Virus record (IMG/VR): IMGVR_UViG_3300033463_000014
Coordinates: 1 to 64,000 of that record
DNA from: a virus
Lineage: Duplodnaviria > Caudoviricetes
DNA length: 64,000 bases
Strand: one strand, 5' to 3'
Part shown: positions 53,660-63,349 of the stretch, one piece after another
Position numbering within the stretch: position 1 is the first letter of the stretch
How the letters are laid out: each line of letters starts with the position of its first letter
The notes under the pieces: generated by a model
What the model saw: the letters and a program-made list of their open reading frames with translations, nothing else
Databases searched by the model: none
What the model was told of the DNA's origin: nothing
Position numbers and translations under genes: made by a program

Positions 53660-53989
53660 TCATTTTCGATCTATCGGGTATAGAACCGTGTCGGCAACCG
53701 CCTCCAGGCACGTGTCCGCAGCCGGTATAACGGAGACAGGCACCGACAATACATTATACCATGAAAACCTGAATACGCCGTCCGTCGCCATCATCTGCGG
53801 GAACGCCGTAACGGCCGTCCACGACGCCATCTCCCTCGTGGACTGGTAGGGCCTCTCTATCCTCGCGTCCGTCCACGGGCATCGGTTGTAGACGTTCATG
53901 CAGCCGGACGATATCGCAAGGACGGCCGCCAAAAGCGCCGGTATTACGATGCGGGCAGGGATAAGAACACATTTTGTCGCATAGTCCAT
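53660..53989 (-). CDS. YceK/YidQ (DUF1375)-like lipoprotein (109 aa; start reassigned to MDYATK)
   Basis: Signal/lipobox LLAAVLAISSG-C; PYQST; C-terminal DTCLEAVADTVLYP. Confidence 0.6.
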   Translation of the reverse strand: MDYATKCVLIPARIVIPALLAAVLAISSGCMNVYNRCPWTDARIERPYQSTREMASWTAVTAFPQMMATDGVFRFSWYNVLSVPVSVIPAADTCLEAVADTVLYPIDRK

Positions 53990-54003
53990 CAAGCTCGCCA
54001 CAA

Positions 54004-56106
54004 CTACACCCCCTTTATCTCGACAGGGTCGTTCGGGCCGATCTCGCCGCCCCTGTACGCCCTGATCGCGTCCGCCTTCGTCTCGAACACCCTGACCGGA
54101 CGCTTCGTCCTGCCCCTCGTAAGCGCCCACAGCCCGGATATCTGCTCCTTCTCGGGCTTGTACCTGACGGACTTCATGTCCGTAAGGCTGATGAGGTTCT
54201 CGGACGGGAGCATCTTCTCAAGGGACTGCTTTGCGGCCTTGTCGCTCGCCGGCACGTGGATGTTCACCGTGTTGCTGAGAACGACGCCGTCGTCTGAAAT
54301 GAACGTGTCGGGGCCTGGCACAGTAAGATCATACCCGATTTCCTCCTTGCCCGTCTTCTCGACGGACTTGATCTTGAGCCACGAAACCTTATATGACGCC
54401 GTCTCCGAAAGGGCCTTCATCTCGGCGCAATCCCTGAGTTCGGTGTCCGGGCTTCCGTACAGGGAAAACAGAGCCTTTATGTCCCCCAATTGTGACCATG
54501 TAAGGAATCCCTTCTTCCTCGCGATGTATATGTCGTTAACCGATTTCCTCACATCGGAGGACCATGTCGGAGCGATCCTTGGCTTCGAGGCGTTCCACCC
54601 GTCCGAGAGGGCTTTCAGCTCGTCGCCGCTCACGCTGACCTTCCACGACCTCCTGCTTCCGCCCGCGTCCTTCTCGAGCATCCCGGAGAACCTCGACTCG
54701 ATATCAGCAAGCACGGACAATCCATTATCCCTTGCGATTGTGTTCTTTTCGGCCATCTCGTTCCCAATGGCCTCGATATCGCGGACGGTATTCCTGGTTA
54801 TCGTTCCGATACACGCGCGATTCCTCACGTTCATGGCGACACTATTCACTTTTCTTCTCATCGCCATCTCGTCTTCTCCTGCGGATCCCTCGTCAGAACC
54901 CGAAACCTCGAAAGTCGGTATCAGACGCGATATCTTTTCCGCTATTCCGCGAGGGAACGGGATCACATCGTTCCTGACGTAGGTTGAGCGCGTGTCAACA
55001 TGGGAAGAGACGAAAATGTCCCTCTTTCTCGAATGGCAGCACATCGAGAGGAGATCCACGCGCTTCGCGTCAACTGTGCTTACTGAGCATATCCAAGAGT
55101 CGTTCCCTCCGGACGTGCGCTTGCTGTAGGAAATAGAAGACCCGACCCCGAGGAGCTGGCAGCACCTCCTGAACTCCCTGACGAGACGGATGGATGTGCT
55201 TGAGAACGATATCAGGAGCTGGGGCTTCTCTTTGCTGTGGCTCAGGCATACCGTCCCGTCCGTAGCGATAAGCCCGTTAACGAGACCAAGGATAAACTCC
55301 CTTCCAGCGAACTGGAACCAGACCGGAAGCCTCTTATTGGCTGACCCGGACGTTTTCTCGTCCCCATGCCCGTCGATGAGCTCCTTGATCCGTCCTCCGA
55401 GAATACTTCGTCTACCGGAGTTCAGCCTGTAAGCGGTCGTGTCCCCGTACCTACCGGACTCATCGCAGAACCTGTGCTCGATCTTCGATATCGTGAAGTC
55501 CGGGAAAACGGTCTTCAGGAAGTCTGATACGAAGGCGATGTTATATCCATCGTTGTCCGAGAGATATGGGTTTAGGCACCTGTCCGCCCATCCGTCTCCA
55601 GCCATGATTCCGACGAACTGTCCGAAACCGAACCCGATTTCAGTACACAGCCCTGACTTTTCCAGCTTGATCATCCCATCCTGAAAATCAAACGACAGGC
55701 CATCAACAGAGGAGGCTAGAGGACAGTCCGATACGGGGACGAGAACATTCTTGTCCATCGCATCGGACGGCGTGAACCTCCCCGGAGTCATTGAGTCTCC
55801 GTTGGCCGCGATGCCGTAGACTGCCCTCGGGTCGTTGTCCGTGATGATCTGCCTTCCGTCCTCAAGGTTTACGATCTCAACCTTCTTCCCCCGATGCACG
55901 GACCAGAATTTGACATCCCTGAACTCGGGGAGACCGGTCTTCTCGTTGTATGAGGAAACCCTCACGCCTTCCGGGACATCGTAGAACTCAATGTCGTATC
56001 CGGAATCCTTCCTCACTGACGAGAGCCCGCCATGGGGGAAGTCCTCGAGATCAACGACAACCGGGACACCTTCCATCTCAGCCACCACGCTCTTTTTGAT
56101 CTGCAT
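54004..56106 (-). CDS. C-terminal split-intein-like part with LAGLIDADG endonuclease, fused to the last 88 aa of the beta'-like RNAP segment (700 aa)
   Basis: FVGIMAGDG and LVNGLIATDG motifs; GYDLTVPG..F...GVVLSN followed by TVNIHVP, which continues NADFDGD. Confidence 0.8.
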   Translation of the reverse strand: MQIKKSVVAEMEGVPVVVDLEDFPHGGLSSVRKDSGYDIEFYDVPEGVRVSSYNEKTGLPEFRDVKFWSVHRGKKVEIVNLEDGRQIITDNDPRAVYGIAANGDSMTPGRFTPSDAMDKNVLVPVSDCPLASSVDGLSFDFQDGMIKLEKSGLCTEIGFGFGQFVGIMAGDGWADRCLNPYLSDNDGYNIAFVSDFLKTVFPDFTISKIEHRFCDESGRYGDTTAYRLNSGRRSILGGRIKELIDGHGDEKTSGSANKRLPVWFQFAGREFILGLVNGLIATDGTVCLSHSKEKPQLLISFSSTSIRLVREFRRCCQLLGVGSSISYSKRTSGGNDSWICSVSTVDAKRVDLLSMCCHSRKRDIFVSSHVDTRSTYVRNDVIPFPRGIAEKISRLIPTFEVSGSDEGSAGEDEMAMRRKVNSVAMNVRNRACIGTITRNTVRDIEAIGNEMAEKNTIARDNGLSVLADIESRFSGMLEKDAGGSRRSWKVSVSGDELKALSDGWNASKPRIAPTWSSDVRKSVNDIYIARKKGFLTWSQLGDIKALFSLYGSPDTELRDCAEMKALSETASYKVSWLKIKSVEKTGKEEIGYDLTVPGPDTFISDDGVVLSNTVNIHVPASDKAAKQSLEKMLPSENLISLTDMKSVRYKPEKEQISGLWALTRGRTKRPVRVFETKADAIRAYRGGEIGPNDPVEIKGV

Positions 56107-56242
56107 CTCCTAAACTCCTTTTCTGATTGGATGCGTGATAATTTATCAAAAACTTAAGATTGATGCAACCAATATCTTTGCTACTCAAAAAGTCGTCAAG
56201 AGCCTTGCCAGTAAGGCTGACGCGAACGCTTCCAATCTGCTG
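54271..56242 (-). mobile_element. Atypical split intein/homing-endonuclease element at the RNAP catalytic motif (IntN 56242-56081, IntC 56106-54271)
   Basis: Removing it restores NADFDGD-TVNIHVP, equivalent to NADFDGD-QMAVHVP of bacterial beta'. Confidence 0.75.
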
Positions 56243-59200
56243 GTCGCCGTCGAAGTCGGCGTTGAACGCGCCACAGACTAGAGGGCAGACGTTGATTGAG
56301 CGCCCTTTCACGATGTGAGGCTTGAAGGCCATGATGTTGAACTTGTGCCACGTCGGGGCCCTGTCCATGAGAACGGGCCGCTCCTCCATGACGTCGTCCA
56401 GTATGTGCCTCGCAGTGGCGTTTCTCTCGTCGATCATCTCCTTTGAGGCGACCGGGGAATAGCCGCGCTGGACGAGCTTGCGCTCTACGAAGGGTCTGAA
56501 TATTGTCCAGGCCATGTCCTCAGGGATCCCGATCTGGTCCATGCTGAGGTTGCCGTTCGGGGTGATGACGGAGCGTCCGACGAGGTCCTGGGTCTTCGAG
56601 ACGGTCTTTGCCTGGAACATCCCCATCTTCGGGACTGTCCCTATCACCTGCCTGACGGCGCCCTTGAGGTTCTTCGCGCGGCCCTCCTGCGTTACGGGGT
56701 CACCGAGCCCGTAGGCGGCCTTCACGGCCCCGTAGACGGCAAGGCGCTCGTCCGCGAGGGCGGAGGCGGGGAGCTCCCTGGAGAGGTCCTCGTAGTTGCG
56801 CTTCATCTCGATGAGCTCCTTGTAGAGCTCGTTCATGTCGGGCACGAGGGCTACGTCGCCCATCTTGGAGACCGGGCGGAACATGGGCGGGAGAACGGGA
56901 ACCCGCGAGATCATCCAGTCTGACGGAGAGATGCCCATCTTATTGGCGGACTTCAGGTATCCGAGGACCTTAACGGCGTTGTCCCGCTGCGCCCCGCGCC
57001 TGGTTAGAACCTCCGAGCGGGCCTTCTCGATGGCGCCGTCCACGTCGACCTTCGACAGGGCTTCCCTGAGGGCTTCCCCGCCCGTCTTGCCGTTCAGCTC
57101 CTCGCGTCCGGAGAGGACGGCCTCCATTTTCTTCGCCGTCAGTCCGAGGACGCGGCGTACGGGCTCCTCCATCATCGGGTTTGGGACGGGATCCGGGAGC
57201 GTGATCATGCTCCAGCGGTTTCCGCCCATCCCGCCCGTCTTTCCGAGGTCGAAGAGTCCTCCCCTTACGGGGTTCATGTCGGGGTCGACCATCTGCGAGG
57301 AGTCGATCACTCGGCCCTGGGCGAGCTCGTCGATGTCCTTGTCGGTCTGCGGCATGATGGATGTGACGTCTCCCTTCTCCACGACGTTCACGCCGCCGGC
57401 GCGGAGTGTGTTCAGGAACTTCTGGTAGATGAACGGCACTCCGGGCTCCTCGACGGGGAGCCCGAGGCGGTAGCGGCGCCAGTACTCGTCGTTGCGCGAG
57501 CCGCGCAGGGTTATGGAGTCCTTCAGGACGTCGGTCGCGCCGTGAGAGAGCAGGGCCGTCGCGTCAAAACCAGAATTTGAAACCAGGCAGTCAGAAGCAC
57601 AGTATTTGTGCGATTTCGCAACTGTAATGTCATACAGGCATATTTCGTCGTCTGGACCATGCTTGCCATCGCTGTACGGCCTCACAGATGTGACAAGCGC
57701 CGGGACGCTTCCAAGTGCGTAAGCAGTGTCTACACCTACGTACGTTTCATACAGCCTTGAAACTTCATTTATCAGCCACTTCTTAGAGGCTGGTATGTCT
57801 TCAGGCCTGATGTATTTGGCTACAATACGAGCCATACTGCGGCAGGCATCAGCAGACAACCCCAAGTAATAATACTCTTTTTTTACACCTTTGTAGGTTT
57901 TATGCGTCGTCCTGACAGTCACGCCAGCGCCAAGCCTCCCGCAAAGCCATTCGGCAAGCCTACAGTTCTCTTCATACGTAAAGTTCAATGTTGATATTGC
58001 CCCAAATGGGCTACCGGTCGGCACTCCATTCTTCGTGTGCTCAGATGCGCAGCCATCGTCAAGGAACCATGCGGCTATGCCGACATCATTTATGTTAGAC
58101 AGGTCGACGTTGACAAGGCTCTTACGACCGAGAGACCCGTCTGGCTGTCTATAGAACATGTTCTTGAGCCGTTCTGCTATGTCATGGCGGTGAATCTGAA
58201 AATACACAATATGCGAGTCGTCTCCATCAGCACGCCTAAATCCAGTCTTGCTCTTCCTCTGGGTGTTCTTTCTGCTTGACACCAGCGCTCCTAGGCAGTG
58301 TATCTTCCAGTTGACGTAGGCGTACTGATGGTGGCTGTGCTGCTCTTGGTAGAACGGTATACATCCGACGTCTAAGCTATTCGTCCTGTCAGACTTGCAT
58401 AGATTGTCGTTTATATTGCATATGCATCCATCGCCAAGCATAGAACCCATTAGAATGGACATCTGGTCCTCTGTAGGCACATACCCGTATGTCGTCAGCC
58501 AGTCACCAGGCCTTAAATCACCAGCAAGAACTTCACCTTTGTTGAAGGAGTACATGTGATGCTGACGTGTGACATGCATCGTCTTGCCTGTGTATACTAC
58601 TCGCTTACGGCTACAATTATCTGACCCTGGCAGATAGTTAATTGATATGGACAGAACCTCTGACATCTTCCCCTTGCGGCAGAACCAGTTCGTTATGAGA
58701 GAATAACCCCATGACCCGTTGTCGAAGCGGGTCCACACGTATTCGGGAATTTTCTTGTCTACGATATGACCTATGGATTCCTCTCCATGCAATACCCTGA
58801 TCGGCTGATCTGCGGTGAAACACATACGCTTAGCACCGTCATCGCCCCCCTTGGCCGGCTGCTCGTCCATCGTGTAGGCGCTGTCCACGCCGCGTGCCGA
58901 GAACTTCTTTTCGGCCAGGTGGTGGAACGCCTTGACGTACGCGTACCCGTCTCCGACGTTCTTGATGATCCTTCCCGTCTGCGGGTCGAACACGTCTGAC
59001 GACTCCTTGACGCCGTTCTCGTCCATCTGCCGTTTGACCCATGCGGTCCACCCCTCTTGCGGCGGCAGCTGAGGGATGCGGATCTGCTTCCCTGTCTTCT
59101 TGGCCACCTTGGCGAGGTTCATCAGGGCTATCTGGCCCGGGGCGACGCGGGAGAGGAAACCCATGGGGTTCATCAGCATGTCGTACGGCTCGTTCGTGGC

Positions 59201-62200
59201 CGCGTCGCGCGGCATCTTATCGTCCGGGATGACGTCCGAGACGACCCCCTTTAGAGAGAAATCGGGGCACAGCTTGTCGCCGGGCTTCACAGGAGGGTCG
59301 CTGTTGACGATCACCTTCGCGCCGTGCGGTCCCGACACGATGTCCGTGACGACTCCAGGCCAGTCGTGCTCCCACTTCTGTGATCTGTCCGTGATGGCGT
59401 TCCTCAGGACGCCGGAGAGCTTTCCGAGCTGTGCGTTCTCCGGTGACAGCATCTTGGGCCCGATGGCGAGGATCATGGGGTCGTCCCTGTGGAGCACGGT
59501 ACCGACCTTTACGACGCCGTCGTCCCCGATCGTGTCGGCCTGCGCCTTCGTGTAGGCCGACGGGAACGCCGCGAGGAACTTCGACCTGGCGATCTGCACG
59601 CCGTTCTTAGTGTCCTGCTCGAAGTTGTACGTGCGCGACGTGGCGAGCTTCTTCGCCGCGGATTCCGAGATCACGATGGCGTCCTCGAACGACGACGTGC
59701 CCTGCGGGGCGGGAAGCACGGCGACCTTCAGGTTCCGTCCCATGGTGACCGTTCCGGTCTTCGGGTCGGTGAAGTTGGAGTTGGCGAGGATTCCGCCCTC
59801 CTCCACCTCGTCTCCCTTTTTCACCTGGGCGGTGAACGAGAGGGAGGACAGGCGGTTGAACGGGAGGCCCTTGACGAGCGACGCGGTGTGCTCGCGGCCG
59901 TCCTTCCCGCGGAGGACGATCTCATTGTCGCTCACCTTCACTACGGTACCGGCGAACGGGGCCGTCAGGCATCCGACCCTCCGCCCGTAGTACTCGCCGT
60001 ACGTCGTTTTCCCGTCGTCGGTCAGGCTCTCGACAAGAGGAACCTCTCCCTCTTTCTGGGGGAGGAACTGCTCCCAGAACTTCGACATGTAGAACTGGCG
60101 GGCGCCCATGACGGCCGTTGGCATCGGGTTCATGTTGATGCCGGCAGACACGGTGTTGCCGAACCCAGGCACCATGAAGTCCACCTCGTCCCTGGGGACC
60201 ATCGTAGGCACGCCCTTGCGCATGACGTAGAGGTTGGGTGACTTCGGGTCCTGGCCCGGGAAGGCCACGGTGTGGGACGACGCGTCGTTCAGGGAGACGT
60301 AGCGGGTTTTACCGGTCCGCATGTCGATCATCTTGTTGTAGATCCGGTTGTCGCTCCCCTTCATCGTCCCGAGCGCCGCCCTGACGTCGATCCCGATGCC
60401 GAACGACTCAGGACCGCTGATGAAGTCCACGTAGCCCAGGTAGTCACCCTGGACGTTGCGGGCCTCGTTGGTCACGAGGTCGGGCGAGGAGATGCCGCCC
60501 TCCCCAAGGCGGGTGATGCGGGACTGCTGGGTGAGGAGCGACATCGGGTTCGCCTCCTCTCCTGGCATCGCGAGTCCGGACCCCGAGAGAAAGGTGTCGA
60601 GATAGGGCCCGAGCGCGTTCCTGGCTATGCGGGCCAGCGAGCGGTCCCGCTTCGCCCTGAACAGGAGGGACTTCGTGAGGCGTCCAGAGTCGCGGTCGAT
60701 GCGCTCGCGCATCATGTCCTCCACCCCGTAGAACCGGCTGAAGCGGGGGTTGTCGCGCTCGTCCGGCTCCTCAGCGCCCCTGTTGATGTTCAGGAGCTTC
60801 TGCGCGGCCCTGAGCATGACCTTCCCGGTCACTCCAGAGGCGTTCTCAAGCCCGAGCGTCCGGACGACGACGTCTGGGTCGAGCCCGCTGGAGGCAAGCG
60901 ACTCGGAGATGAACGAGGCCTTCTCGGACGGGGTCAGGCTCATGTCGGCCCGGCGGCCGGCGTAGCGCGCGTAGACCTTGTCGACGGCCCTAGGGTCGAA
61001 CTTGGCGATGTTCACGTTCGCAACGGCGTCTCCCCAGGACTTCCGCATGTCGTCATCCGACACGCCGAGGGCGCTCAAAATGGGGTAAAGGGGGACATGG
61101 CCCTGTCCGACGCTCATGTTCAGTGCGCCGGTCGACCTGTCCAGTCCGATCCGGAAGCCGAGCCCGTTCGCCACGTTGAACTGGGACTCGAGCTCGCCGT
61201 TCTGCTTGCGGCGCACGTAGACCCCGGGGGACAGGCGGGCCTGAGAGATGACGGTGTACTCGCTCCCGTTATTGATGATCGTTCCCCTGTCGGTGTAGTA
61301 AGGTACCCTGATGACGCCGTCCCTTCGCTCGTCCAGGACTTTCCCGGTGCGCTTGTCCGTCAGGCGCCACGTCCCGGCGACAGAGCATCCGAGGCGCCTG
61401 TTGTTCAGGATGGCCCTCTTCTGCTGCTCAAGCGTGTAGGAGGTAGGACCCTCGTATTTAACGTCCAGAAGCTCGAGGCGCACGTCGTCGTTCTCGATCG
61501 GGAAGCGGTTCTTGACGGCTTCAAGGACGTTGTCCATGATGGCCTGCCGAGTGGCCGGCGCGTCCGTGAACCCGCGTAGCCTCACGCCCGGAGGCACGCC
61601 CTCCATGGGATCGTCGGCGTCGTCCGCCTGGGAAGTCTTGACTATGCTCTTCTCTTTCTTATATCCGGAAGCAGTCTCCTCGTCGTCAAGATTCTTCTGA
61701 GCCTCTTCCCGAGTGTTGAACACCTTCCCGGGATGGTCTCCGAACCCGCCGTACATGGCGAGTCCGGTGGTCTTAAACCTTCCCCCTTCTTCGATGTCTG
61801 GGGAATCTAGCCAGCAGCAGTAGTAATCCTTTCCGTTGGACCGCTTCCCGCCGTAATAGTATCCTACGATCTTACGTACCTTTCCACTCATCCTCGCGTG
61901 AGGGAAGGTTACCCATTTCCCGATAGGAAATTTTTCCTTCATTTCCGCGGGGATATCATCCTCCTCATGACGATCTTGCGATGTCTTGACGATGCTCTTT
62001 TTTTCGGCTGGATCTGATTTGGCGGCAGGGGCCTTGTCCGCGGGAGCCTGTTTTTCGGTCTTGGCTGGATTCGAGGCCTCCTGGTTCAGGACCCAGACGT
62101 CACCGTTCCTCCTGAGCCTCTTCATGAAGTCGCTGTGGAGCTTCGCCGACTTCGCGACGGCCGCCTCGCTGTAGCTCCTGTTCCCGGGTATCGTGTGGGC

Positions 62201-63349
62201 AGGAGTAAACACCTTTCTCAGAAGCCAGTCGGCGTACTTGTCAGCGGTGAACTCCGCCCCGGCGGCCATGTGGGCCTTGTAACCGGACCTGGACGGCATG
62301 TAGACCTTCGTGAAATAGTCGATCTGGCTGTCGGACGAGTCTTGAAGCCCGTTCTTCGCGAGCCACGCCTTATAAGCATCAAGAGAGGGGCCCGTGTACT
62401 GGAAGAGCCCGCGTCCACCTCCCCCTCCCATCTGCTTAGTGGCGTAGTCGAATCTACCTCCTGTCTCCCTGTCTATGTTCGCCAGCACAGCGGCCTCTAG
62501 AATCGGGTTGTTCAGATTCTCGTGGAGCCTCTTTGCAACGTTATTGAACCTTTCGTAGACATCCACCGGACCGGCGGCTTGCTTTGGCGGGGGGATAACA
62601 ATTTTCTGCCCGATAGAGAGAACGTTCGGGTTCTTGAGGCTGTTCGCGGCGATCAGCTCTTTCAAAGGAACCTTTAGCTTTTGGGCGATACCGTAAAGCG
62701 AGTCGCCCTTCTGGACGACGTATTCGGACGGGCGATTGACAGGATTGACCTGGGCCGCCTTCTCGTTGACCTTTATCGGATCGACGATCGGAGCGACGGA
62801 CCTGTACTCGTGGAACGGCTTGGTCTTGCGGTCAGACGAGTCGATCCACTTCCTGAACTCGGCCTTGGAGACAGGCGTGATCCATCCTAGGCCATTCCAC
62901 CCCTTCTGGTAGCAGGCTAGGTAGGTCTTCTTGGCGTCCTCGACGCTGTCGAAACCGTACATGACCTTGTGCTCGTCGAACTTTCCGGTCTTGGGGTCCA
63001 CCTGGTCGATGACGAAGACGCACCCCTTCTCCGGATGGTCGGACAGGTAGATGTCCACCGGGTCGCCGTCCGTGTCTGTCGTGCCCCTGATGTCTCCGTA
63101 GTCGCATGCGAGAGCATTGCTCCACCTCGTCCCGTCCGGAGAGACCCCGGATCGGATTGACCCCTTCGGGTTCTCTATGGACACGCGGAACCCGTCGATG
63201 GACAGGTGGACCTTTCTGTAGTTCCCCGCCCTTCTCTGCCCTTCTGTGGGGTTCTCGGCTGCGTCAGGGGCTCCTGCGTTCACGGCGCGCTGCGCCGGCG
63301 AGGAGGCCTTTTTCGAGAAGATCGAGTCGATGGTTTCAAGTAGCGTCAT
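56078..63349 (-). CDS. Polyprotein (2423 aa): PPase-like + LysM + phage-tail-lysozyme-like + small insert + fused beta/beta' multisubunit-type RNA polymerase, with a cis intein and a terminal IntN
   Basis: ENPKGS..DYG..DGDPVD..DEHK; YVVQKGDSLYGIA..NPNVLSIGQKIVIP; ANIDRETGG..GLFQYT; beta motifs GRNL..FEDAIVISE, GDKL..KGVV, NPMGFLSR, HHLAEKKFSAR; beta' motifs VPVLPPMFRP, GRSVITP, RAPTWH, NADFDGD. Confidence 0.9.
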   Translation of the reverse strand: MTLLETIDSIFSKKASSPAQRAVNAGAPDAAENPTEGQRRAGNYRKVHLSIDGFRVSIENPKGSIRSGVSPDGTRWSNALACDYGDIRGTTDTDGDPVDIYLSDHPEKGCVFVIDQVDPKTGKFDEHKVMYGFDSVEDAKKTYLACYQKGWNGLGWITPVSKAEFRKWIDSSDRKTKPFHEYRSVAPIVDPIKVNEKAAQVNPVNRPSEYVVQKGDSLYGIAQKLKVPLKELIAANSLKNPNVLSIGQKIVIPPPKQAAGPVDVYERFNNVAKRLHENLNNPILEAAVLANIDRETGGRFDYATKQMGGGGGRGLFQYTGPSLDAYKAWLAKNGLQDSSDSQIDYFTKVYMPSRSGYKAHMAAGAEFTADKYADWLLRKVFTPAHTIPGNRSYSEAAVAKSAKLHSDFMKRLRRNGDVWVLNQEASNPAKTEKQAPADKAPAAKSDPAEKKSIVKTSQDRHEEDDIPAEMKEKFPIGKWVTFPHARMSGKVRKIVGYYYGGKRSNGKDYYCCWLDSPDIEEGGRFKTTGLAMYGGFGDHPGKVFNTREEAQKNLDDEETASGYKKEKSIVKTSQADDADDPMEGVPPGVRLRGFTDAPATRQAIMDNVLEAVKNRFPIENDDVRLELLDVKYEGPTSYTLEQQKRAILNNRRLGCSVAGTWRLTDKRTGKVLDERRDGVIRVPYYTDRGTIINNGSEYTVISQARLSPGVYVRRKQNGELESQFNVANGLGFRIGLDRSTGALNMSVGQGHVPLYPILSALGVSDDDMRKSWGDAVANVNIAKFDPRAVDKVYARYAGRRADMSLTPSEKASFISESLASSGLDPDVVVRTLGLENASGVTGKVMLRAAQKLLNINRGAEEPDERDNPRFSRFYGVEDMMRERIDRDSGRLTKSLLFRAKRDRSLARIARNALGPYLDTFLSGSGLAMPGEEANPMSLLTQQSRITRLGEGGISSPDLVTNEARNVQGDYLGYVDFISGPESFGIGIDVRAALGTMKGSDNRIYNKMIDMRTGKTRYVSLNDASSHTVAFPGQDPKSPNLYVMRKGVPTMVPRDEVDFMVPGFGNTVSAGINMNPMPTAVMGARQFYMSKFWEQFLPQKEGEVPLVESLTDDGKTTYGEYYGRRVGCLTAPFAGTVVKVSDNEIVLRGKDGREHTASLVKGLPFNRLSSLSFTAQVKKGDEVEEGGILANSNFTDPKTGTVTMGRNLKVAVLPAPQGTSSFEDAIVISESAAKKLATSRTYNFEQDTKNGVQIARSKFLAAFPSAYTKAQADTIGDDGVVKVGTVLHRDDPMILAIGPKMLSPENAQLGKLSGVLRNAITDRSQKWEHDWPGVVTDIVSGPHGAKVIVNSDPPVKPGDKLCPDFSLKGVVSDVIPDDKMPRDAATNEPYDMLMNPMGFLSRVAPGQIALMNLAKVAKKTGKQIRIPQLPPQEGWTAWVKRQMDENGVKESSDVFDPQTGRIIKNVGDGYAYVKAFHHLAEKKFSARGVDSAYTMDEQPAKGGDDGAKRMCFTADQPIRVLHGEESIGHIVDKKIPEYVWTRFDNGSWGYSLITNWFCRKGKMSEVLSISINYLPGSDNCSRKRVVYTGKTMHVTRQHHMYSFNKGEVLAGDLRPGDWLTTYGYVPTEDQMSILMGSMLGDGCICNINDNLCKSDRTNSLDVGCIPFYQEQHSHHQYAYVNWKIHCLGALVSSRKNTQRKSKTGFRRADGDDSHIVYFQIHRHDIAERLKNMFYRQPDGSLGRKSLVNVDLSNINDVGIAAWFLDDGCASEHTKNGVPTGSPFGAISTLNFTYEENCRLAEWLCGRLGAGVTVRTTHKTYKGVKKEYYYLGLSADACRSMARIVAKYIRPEDIPASKKWLINEVSRLYETYVGVDTAYALGSVPALVTSVRPYSDGKHGPDDEICLYDITVAKSHKYCASDCLVSNSGFDATALLSHGATDVLKDSITLRGSRNDEYWRRYRLGLPVEEPGVPFIYQKFLNTLRAGGVNVVEKGDVTSIMPQTDKDIDELAQGRVIDSSQMVDPDMNPVRGGLFDLGKTGGMGGNRWSMITLPDPVPNPMMEEPVRRVLGLTAKKMEAVLSGREELNGKTGGEALREALSKVDVDGAIEKARSEVLTRRGAQRDNAVKVLGYLKSANKMGISPSDWMISRVPVLPPMFRPVSKMGDVALVPDMNELYKELIEMKRNYEDLSRELPASALADERLAVYGAVKAAYGLGDPVTQEGRAKNLKGAVRQVIGTVPKMGMFQAKTVSKTQDLVGRSVITPNGNLSMDQIGIPEDMAWTIFRPFVERKLVQRGYSPVASKEMIDERNATARHILDDVMEERPVLMDRAPTWHKFNIMAFKPHIVKGRSINVCPLVCGAFNADFDGDQQIGSVRVSLTGKALDDFLSSKDIGCINLKFLINYHASNQKRSLGDADQKERGG
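56140..56168 (-). promoter_or_regulatory. Internal promoter TTGCAT-N17-TAAATT with downstream AGGAG RBS for the IntC ORF
   Basis: AT-rich island inside the IntN coding sequence; AAAAGGAG 8 nt before ATG 56106. Confidence 0.55.
57575..58822 (-). mobile_element. Canonical class-1 intein (416 aa) with LAGLIDADG homing endonuclease in the beta C-terminal region
   Basis: GAKRM/CFTAD start; block B VTRQH; GSMLGDG and AWFLDDG; YDITVAKSHKY..LVSN/SGFD end; lower GC than the flanks. Confidence 0.9.
61626..62005. repeat. Imperfect direct repeat (KSIVKTSQ, gtcttgac.atgctctt) flanking a ~105-aa insert in the RNAP polyprotein
   Basis: EKKSIVKTSQD at about 61975-62005 and KEKSIVKTSQAD at about 61626-61658. 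Confidence 0.75.

Follow-up and report, generated by a model that had tools for sequence, protein, structure and literature searches.

A split intein with an atypical residue signature and its own endonuclease in the catalytic loop of a phage RNA polymerase

Introduction

Three mechanisms of intein splicing are known, each with a defined nucleophile: Cys or Ser at intein residue 1, Cys at the first C-extein residue (+1) or Cys at position F:4. Here we analyze an element that interrupts the NADFDGD catalytic loop of the β′ subunit of a phage RNA polymerase (RNAP), encoded in a 64,000-nucleotide stretch of a Caudoviricetes genome (positions 1 to 64,000 of IMG/VR record IMGVR_UViG_3300033463_000014; this whole stretch is the window, to which coordinates refer unless stated otherwise). 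By fold, genetics and C-terminal chemistry, as read from its sequence and from structural models, the element is clearly an intein, yet it lies outside classes 1–3. Its family, which comprises at least 184 representatives (50%-identity clusters collected at E ≤ 1e-30 by an exhaustive HMMER search with a profile of the N-terminal Hint lobe), occupies the most constrained loop of an essential enzyme without any of the nucleophiles listed above and with all three catalytic histidines replaced by Asp, Glu or Ser, so that the RNAP probably depends on an uncharacterized protein-processing chemistry.

Among the closest described systems, the class 2 inteins of KlbA have Ala1, Ser at G:6 and Cys+1, require Thr B:7, His B:10 and Asp F:4, and splice by a mechanism that bypasses step 1 (PMC4031507); loss of His G:6 is in itself not exceptional, being found in about 5% of working inteins (PMC4031507). 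In cysteine-less inteins that use Ser1, and only in these, a His of motif NX is conserved, which lies near the N-terminal scissile bond and is essential (Pasch et al. 2023, PMC10189870); the same study showed the block B His to be dispensable in the atypically split PolB16 OarG intein, whose N-terminal fragment (IntN) measures 15 aa. Finally, the “fractured genes” of Dassa et al. 2009 (PMC2677866) are broken by split inteins whose two halves flank a free-standing endonuclease gene.

Two overlapping genes carry the element

The source genome is a complete record of 181,382 bp with terminal repeats. An initial annotation, made from the letters of the window, had described a large open reading frame (ORF1) that reaches NADFDGD, continues for 54 aa and stops, and an overlapping ORF2, with its own ribosome-binding site (RBS), that supplies the rest of a split intein-like element and of the RNAP loop. 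Translation confirmed each of its sequence statements, including the coordinates, the 54-aa tail, ORF2 and its RBS, the block B sequence TDND, the block F sequence GYDLTVPGPDTF and the penultimate Ser. The features of the locus are:

56078-63349, minus strand: ORF1, 2423 aa, an InPase-LysM-lysozyme-RNAP β-β′N polyprotein
56263-56243, minus strand: NADFDGD, the Mg-binding catalytic loop of RNAP β′ and the last N-extein residues of ORF1, by translation
56242-56081, minus strand: IntN, 54 aa from Gln1 (QQIGSVRV...), by translation
56138-56199, minus strand: AT-rich junction, with a sigma-70-like TTGACG-17-GATATT at 56199-56171, by consensus match
56147-56138, minus strand: GATAAATTAT, conserved in split relatives
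56120-56115, minus strand: Shine-Dalgarno sequence AAGGAG, within the end of ORF1 and 8 nt before the ORF2 ATG (56106-56104)
56080-56078, minus strand: TGA stop codon of ORF1
56106-54004, minus strand: ORF2, 700 aa, in a different frame from ORF1 and with its own RBS
54271-56106, minus strand: C-terminal intein fragment (IntC), ORF2 residues 1-612, comprising the Hint N-lobe, the LAGLIDADG endonuclease and the Hint C-lobe
55894-55902, minus strand: Ser69-Val-His71, an [ST]-x-His motif
55822-55842, minus strand: block B (N3), TDNDPRA in the context ITDNDPRA, with Thr B:7 kept and His B:10 replaced by Asp92
54997-55644, minus strand: LAGLIDADG homing-endonuclease domain, ORF2 residues ~155-370, by Pfam and structural matches
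54271-54336, minus strand: blocks F and G, GYDLTVPGPDTF...GVVLSN
54007-54270, minus strand: C-extein, 88 aa from Thr+1 (TVNIHVP and 81 further residues), followed by a stop at 54004-54006

The two genes overlap by 29 nt. On one side of the element, Pfam RNA_pol_Rpb1_2 spans ORF1 residues 2306-2371; on the other, a profile search of the PDB aligns the C-extein with residues 745-830 of T. aquaticus β′ and 466-550 of E. coli β′. In ORF2, Pfam recognizes LAGLIDADG_3 (PF14528; residues 270-340, E 2e-7) and, with 24 bits, which is below the cut-off of 35.8 bits, the C-terminal third of Intein_splicing. Residues 2-15 of IntN correspond to the first Hint strand and residues ~24-39 (CINLKFLINYH...) to a helix that is predicted to dock on the endonuclease domain. 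At the opposite end of the element, blocks F and G keep Asp F:4 (Asp593), have Asp600 in place of the block F His, and end with the penultimate Ser611 and the terminal Asn612, whose codon is 54273-54271.

The GC content falls to 0.34 at 56100-56199, at the ORF1/ORF2 break. A GATAAAyTAT-like element, which lies ~25 nt upstream of the RBS in the window, recurs at the junctions of split relatives (L006, L007, L009 and L010 were compared), and AAGGAG stands at the equivalent spot in L006, L009 and L010. Judged by their sequence, these junction elements may form a promoter of ORF2’s own and hence give the gene its own timing; the promoter-like element is the sole support for the possibility, already put forward in the initial annotation, that activation of the RNAP is conditional on a second gene product.

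Insertion site and mobility

Three element-free relatives in IMG/VR, 59-78% identical in β′N, read without interruption HDGD-TVNIHVP or FDGD-QVNIHVP; the element is thereby placed precisely at the boundary of the third catalytic Asp and Thr, which bears out the NADFDGD-TVNIHVP join that had been proposed from the two ORFs. Among the 117 RNAP clusters closest to that of the window in a collection of 5.8 billion proteins, 72 are free of the element, 29 are split with a homologous tail of 39-54 aa, and 16 contain the element unbroken, so that 45 of the 117 alleles carry it. The residue that follows DGD in the 72 element-free alleles is Thr in 69 cases and Gln in 3. As Thr is thus native to the uninterrupted gene, its conservation at +1 is uninformative on chemistry, and it was dropped as evidence for splicing.

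Both LAGLIDADG motifs retain their acidic residue (..MAGDGW and ..LIATDGT; Asp171 is nearly invariant and Asp283 invariant), and the endonuclease region (model residues 135-373) matches I-DmoI and I-Tsp061I with Z scores of 15-17 in VIA comparisons; both the paired acidic motifs and the α-β-β-α-β-β-α fold of LAGLIDADG homing endonucleases are therefore found, in sequence and model, respectively. The presence of such a homing domain would explain why close relatives vary in having the element, and this distribution, as read from the sequenced alleles, is the pattern expected of an active homing element.

A tblastn search with ORF2 against 50,697 deposited phage genome records gave no match, and the extein has only matches below 40% identity in the same records. 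No description of an intein at the NADFDGD site, or of the residue pattern detailed below, was found in the literature, and an intein family at this position of RNAP is apparently undescribed so far.

The split is real and recurrent

Two recorded contigs bear exactly this ORF1. Moreover, there are ~45 stand-alone ORF2-like clusters (676-703 aa, 37-67% identity), and contigs of three such relatives are likewise organized in two genes, the tails measuring 44, 50 and 24 aa; the layout is also found in L006, L007, L009-L011, L021, L047, L063 and L094. With this split present in 29 of the 117 nearest RNAP clusters, in the ~45 ORF2 clusters and on the contigs of relatives, and with ORF1 itself found on two contigs, an assembly indel is, at the level of sequence, excluded for practical purposes as its cause.

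Scans of the IMG/VR and JGI/ENA metagenomes yielded 53 distinct elements, 12 of which are split and 41 contiguous. The split ones have tails of 13-54 aa and a distance from stop to next start of -32 to +138 nt, which exceeds 1 kb in L042 and L043. Of 139 representatives examined, 90 are contiguous and 21 are stand-alone C-fragments that start at the Hint N-lobe. On a tree of 46 element cores, obtained by a quick IQ-TREE search from which L024, L054, L056, L057, L074, L088, L089 and L096 were omitted for want of a recognizable DLxDFP anchor, split forms fall into at least four separate clades. As in naturally split inteins, IntN and IntC are encoded by different genes, and each of them is joined to a single extein; what is unusual in the window is the combination of a split form with a retained endonuclease. 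The original description of an intein-like element that is split near its N-terminus and keeps its endonuclease is upheld by the Hint and LAGLIDADG folds and by the recurrence of this layout.

L042 (1633-3927) and L043, which correspond to IMG/VR 3300045988_177643 and _177658, show a “fractured gene” layout of their own. ORF1 ends with DFDGD-CQWGHVFVCIRNS and a stop, a 13-aa IntN with Cys1; there follows a gap of 1.0-1.3 kb that contains an unrelated ORF of 158 aa, and then an IntC of 236 aa, which is devoid of an endonuclease and still has TDDDPRA and LSN-T.

A residue signature maintained across the family

Gln1 had initially been singled out as a distinctive residue, a view that did not survive comparison with relatives. 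In the 90 contiguous representatives, residue 1 is Gln (35), Glu (13), Asp (12), Ala (11), Leu (7), Tyr (4), Cys (4), Gly (2), Asn (1) or Lys (1), and in the close split relatives it is Gln (9), Leu (8), Lys (6), Met (5) or Glu (1); it differs even between near-identical sisters (E/L, E/F, Y/F and L/D). A single Ser1 turned up across all sets (P0046), the 90 contiguous representatives having none, and the four contiguous representatives with Cys1, as well as the Cys1 rows of the tree, retain the same atypical blocks. By these sequence counts, residue 1 is unconstrained family-wide.

The remainder of the signature is, by comparison, fixed. Block B reads [TS]D[DNEH][DH]P[RK][AG] wherever it could be located, with TDDDPRA in 90 of 123 representatives and a single TDDHPRA; block F follows the pattern GYDLTVPGx[ED]TF, whose His position is Asp or Glu (Glu in most members); and block G is LSN-T, the C-terminus being SN-T in 105 of 107 representatives. 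Twelve positions (His71, Asp90, Asp92, Arg94, Arg110, Asp593, Val596, Pro597, Thr601, Phe602, Ser611 and Asn612) are invariant in 46 diverse members. Among the 197 members with a His 18 residues before block B, the residue two positions upstream of this His71 always has a hydroxyl (Ser in 189, Thr in 8); on a β-strand, the side chains of Ser69 and His71 would point the same way.

In four close pairs, the ratio of non-synonymous to synonymous substitution rates (dN/dS) of the element is 0.03-0.12, as low as or lower than that of the adjacent extein. At the sequence level, the element is therefore maintained as a working protein under purifying selection while residue 1 drifts, and the missing nucleophile, the changes of the block B and F histidines and the penultimate Ser are traits that a large family has preserved rather than signs of decay in a single copy. 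The comparison with homologues and intein-free alleles that the initial annotation had suggested thus revealed conservation of both the split and the atypical residues, along with an exact insertion site. Its statement that only the terminal Asn and Thr+1 remain of the usual splicing residues holds in so far as both are present, but is too narrow, since Thr B:7, Asp F:4 and the invariant [ST]-x-His (Ser69/His71) are also kept.

Run against PDB chains, the profile of the N-lobe gives weak alignments (E 0.044-0.29) to PI-PkoII and TFIIB inteins; in these alignments His71 falls on the His of PI-PkoII ..RH and TFIIB ..SRH, whose preceding Arg or Lys is not conserved here. With matches of this strength (E ≥ 0.04), equivalence of His71 with the motif NX His is tentative.

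Fold and assembly of the two fragments

The AlphaFold2 model of ORF2 (predicted local distance difference test score, pLDDT, 82; predicted template modeling score, pTM, 0.71) has the TliVMA intein as its best Foldseek match (E 4e-12). In VIA comparisons it superposes on 7qsu with a Z score of 29.3 (root-mean-square deviation, rmsd, 3.5 over 345 aligned residues), on PI-PkoII (2cw7) with Z 26.0 and on PI-SceI with Z 23; the Hint fold is further supported by matches to the Pho RadA mini-intein (4e2u, Z 18.3) and to Npu DnaB and Npu DnaE (Z 15-16).

The boundaries of the element were assessed on the model of a contiguous relative, L022 (pLDDT 83.4, pTM 0.84). Its residue 14, directly after DGD, is matched to the first residue of the Pho RadA, Mtu RecA and Ssp DnaE inteins, and its residue 13 to that of PI-PkoII; its terminal Asn (N533) aligns with the last residue of all four. 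Because the residue after DGD superposes on Cys1/Ser1, the conserved segment x-Gln-[Ile/Val/Leu]-Gly-x-Val-... is block A, with x at the Cys1/Ser1 position. Two other ways of delimiting the element were rejected. One, suggested by the resemblance of QQIG-SVRV to MQIKKSVV and by the alignment of residues 3..612 of the ORF2-only model to chain residues 4..end, took ORF2 Met1 as the Cys1 position and the 54-aa tail as a degenerate duplicate; it fails because contiguous relatives hold both segments in tandem and because of the above superposition of the L022 residue. The other, in which the extein would end with DGD-x1 and the element with ...SNT, was discarded because it would leave the C-junction without Asn or nucleophile and because x1 is too variable for a neighbor of the catalytic triad.

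Modeling of IntN (with 19 extein residues) together with ORF2 gave a complex with an ipSAE of 0.68, compared with 0.00 for the best of three controls; 58 of 80 solved complexes attain this mark, as do 2 of 110 mismatched pairs. At least 67% of the contacts are common to the runs, the pLDDT of the partner being 53-56. Residues 2-15 of IntN are predicted to contact ORF2 residues 11-20, 45-51, 87-89 (block B), 591-594 (block F), 602-605 and 610, and the helix further along the tail is placed against residues 132-146, 261-267 and 310-314, in the endonuclease region. According to this prediction, IntN makes the Hint fold of IntC whole; as the solved structures include split inteins in good number, passing the docking threshold shows likeness to them as much as binding.

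When ORF2 is folded alone, a strand of its own N-terminus (residues 6-11; ORF2 residues 1-11 correspond to 56074-56106, minus strand) occupies the slot of the missing IntN strand. Contiguous relatives have at this place a semi-conserved M-x-A-R-F-K-E segment (L022 model residues 39-58), which is modeled with low confidence. The N-terminal strand may be a self-cap for unpaired IntC or a modeling artefact.

Comparison with known inteins

The element has the Hint fold, is inserted in frame at a site for which element-free alleles exist, and ends with Asn followed by Thr at +1, as inteins do. The early conclusion that it fits none of classes 1-3 stands, as does the choice drawn from it between new chemistry and a reliance on cleavage or non-covalent complementation, and the conclusion applies to the family as a whole. 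Class 1 inteins need Cys, Ser or Thr at residue 1 and normally have Thr-x-x-His in block B, together with Asp F:4, His F:13 and a penultimate His G:6. Here residue 1 is Gln, Asp takes the place of the block B His, Asp or Glu that of the block F His, and Ser occupies G:6; the last of these deviations is shared by both canonical inteins of the same genome.

Like the class 2 inteins (Mja KlbA orthologues), the element has a non-nucleophilic residue 1, Ser G:6, Asp F:4, Thr B:7 and a terminal Asn. Unlike them, all of which reside in KlbA and have Ala1, His B:10 and Cys+1, it combines nearly any residue 1 with Asp B:10 and Thr+1 and is hosted by a phage RNAP. It resembles class 3 inteins (MP-Be DnaB type) in the non-nucleophilic residue 1, in the hydroxyl residue (Thr or Ser) at +1, in the phage origin proposed for that class and in the concept of an internal nucleophile; the Cys F:4 that defines class 3 is, however, Asp593 here (invariant in 46 of 46), and no Cys is conserved in the Hint part. 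The other two signature positions of class 3, Trp B:12 and Thr G:5, are occupied here by Arg94 and Leu610.

The cysteine-less split inteins (PMC10189870) resemble the element in being encoded by two genes with a break just after the first Hint strand, in the hydroxyl residue at +1, in their occurrence in phage or metagenomic polymerase genes, and in a His that aligns, if weakly, with motif NX; furthermore, the L022 model superposes on the fused cysteine-less Aes123 PolB1 split intein (9hth) with Z 19.2 and rmsd 2.7. They differ in that they use Ser1 and keep the block B His, whereas here residue 1 is Gln and unconstrained, the block B His has become Asp and the block F His Asp or Glu, the penultimate residue is Ser, IntC retains a LAGLIDADG endonuclease and IntN has an extra helix. 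To judge by its sequence, the family seems to be an offshoot of the oxyester class 1 inteins in which residue 1 has been abandoned altogether.

The fractured genes offer a parallel in an essential phage or metagenomic gene that is broken at an intein, and L042 and L043 have exactly that layout; in the window, on the other hand, the endonuclease still lies inside IntC and the genes overlap by 29 nt. The inteins of fractured genes reportedly have canonical catalytic residues. As for PI-PkoII, TliVMA, PI-PfuI and PI-SceI, they too are Hint domains with an inserted LAGLIDADG domain (Z 22-29), but they are contiguous, start with Cys1 or Ser1 and have TxxH and (mostly) HN termini.

Proposed route and alternatives

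Taking the sequence and structural evidence together, we incline, without strong conviction, to regard the element as a functional, mobile, naturally split intein that splices completely while bypassing residue 1. After translation, the IntN strand would insert into IntC beside blocks B, F and G, bringing DGD and Thr+1 together. The element would then be removed from the protein, with the N-junction being broken without the help of a residue-1 side chain and the C-terminus being released by cyclization of the invariant Asn612 to a succinimide, which would restore an uninterrupted NADFDGD-TVNIHVP loop. The N-junction could react by direct attack of Thr+1 on the scissile amide, following the logic of class 2, or by acyl transfer to an internal hydroxyl, for which Ser69/His71 would be the best candidate, and from there to Thr+1, following the logic of class 3 with an oxyester; the conserved carboxylates Asp90/92, Asp593 and Asp/Glu600 would stand in for the three lost histidines.

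That the element must leave the loop is suggested by the contiguous state of most members, since an active centre would hardly accommodate a domain of 500-650 aa tethered at the third metal-binding Asp. The invariance of Asn612 points to C-terminal release by succinimide formation, and that of the N-junction residues (Thr B:7, Asp F:4 and the NX-type His) to continued selection for a reaction at the N-junction. Several considerations weigh against full splicing. There is no known precedent for a Thr+1 that attacks an amide without prior activation. In class 2 inteins the +1 residue used is Cys, and they also depend on His B:10 (PMC4031507), a residue that the element lacks; the native Thr of 69 of 72 element-free alleles deprives the invariance of Thr+1 of any value as catalytic evidence. 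The support for the Ser69/His71 proposal consists of conservation and a weak profile alignment (E 0.044), and neither residue appears in the list of confident contacts in the predicted IntN-IntC complex. In addition, the RNAP is already in separate pieces, and a nicked product without ligation might suffice.

A wider interpretation of the sequences and models, which we consider possible but somewhat doubtful, is that the family represents a fourth splicing class, forming the branched ester with neither a residue-1 nucleophile nor the canonical histidines and relying on Ser69/His71 or on a carboxylate-assisted Thr+1 route. In split members such as that of the window, the dependence of the RNAP loop on a second gene product, which may have its own promoter, would then constitute a post-translational switch of transcription.

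Excision without ligation, in which hydrolysis of the N-junction (by water, through the carboxylates or His71) and cyclization of Asn612 would produce a nicked, non-covalently held RNAP whose chain breaks off in a free carboxyl group at ...DGD and resumes with a free amino group at Thr, is the main rival; it is unlikely but deserves serious attention. It would agree with the lack of a nucleophile at residue 1, with the clustering of invariant acids where inteins normally have His and with the invariance of Asn612; type B bacterial intein-like (BIL) domains, moreover, show N- and C-cleavage uncoupled from splicing (PMC4031507). As the RNAP already consists of separate gene products, β′C being encoded ~120 kb away, further fragmentation is plausible, and splits have arisen in at least four separate clades. 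On the other hand, a break directly behind the third metal-binding Asp would leave the catalytic centre with a charged chain end, no natural RNAP split without a Hint domain occurs at this position among the 117 closest clusters, and the retained Thr B:7, Asp F:4 and NX-type His are the set that serves acyl transfer in splicing inteins.

Improbable to a greater degree is a reaction limited to C-cleavage, or none at all, with IntN and IntC serving as a permanent non-covalent clamp on the 88-aa C-extein while the tail or the whole element stays on NADFDGD. The predicted docking of IntN and IntC is indeed tight, and residue 1 would need no chemistry; but 90 of 139 representatives are contiguous, so that a domain of 500-650 aa would hang in the active-centre cleft, and the invariance of His71, Thr89 and Asp593 would be left unexplained.

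The missing canonical catalytic residues, together with the GC dip and frame change at the break, could also be taken to indicate a dead or artefactual element, that is, an intein decaying in a defective genome or an assembly indel. This is very improbable in view of the same split in 29 close clusters and several other clades, the dN/dS of 0.03-0.12, the complete genome with terminal repeats and the presence of the element in 45 of the 117 closest alleles. Removal at the level of RNA or translation, by an intron or ribosomal bypass, to which the AT-rich junction might hint, is scarcely credible, as an Rfam scan of 53800-56500 at E ≤ 1 found no intron family and only a chance miRNA match, and the element is in frame with the C-extein and encodes a conserved Hint and endonuclease protein under purifying selection.

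If the element does splice, it would do so by a new cysteine-free and histidine-poor chemistry, of interest for protein engineering because it would be redox-insensitive, tolerate any residue 1 and operate with a short IntN of 13-54 aa; if it is only cleaved, a multisubunit RNAP can run with a nicked catalytic loop. Either way, the tolerance of phages for mobile elements in their transcription machinery becomes testable, and the natural pairs of contiguous and split forms are ready-made experimental material.

Other inteins and neighboring features

The RNAP of this phage contains three inteins, of which only that at NADFDGD is atypical. The second one, in the β part of ORF1, has Cys1 (..KRM-CFTADQ), TRQH in block B, a LAGLIDADG_2 domain and the end ..CLVSN-SGFD, with a penultimate Ser and Ser+1. 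RNAP β′C is the product of a separate gene of 1019 aa, outside the window at genome positions 172628-175687 (minus strand), ~120 kb away; it contains the third intein, which is also canonical (..KH-CLSEGT, block B STSSHK, block F DHLF, end ..LIVSN-SGKK). The two canonical inteins in the β and β′C genes show that the phage tolerates inteins in its RNAP and relies on their processing. The additional features of ORF1 are:

57575-58822, minus strand: canonical intein in the RNAP β part, 416 aa
62843-63241, minus strand: InPase domain
62591-62722, minus strand: LysM domain
62294-62494, minus strand: phage-tail-lysozyme domain

In ORF1, the InPase, LysM and lysozyme domains precede RNAP β-β′N within a single, polyvalent-looking protein. 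PHROG matches to the InPase part are labeled as virion structural, minor head and DarB-like proteins, and the ORF1 product is probably delivered with the virion. Directly downstream of ORF2 lies a small ORF (53660-53991, minus strand), whose likely start, MDYATKCVLIPARIV..LLAAVLAISSGC, resembles a lipoprotein signal peptide with a lipobox.

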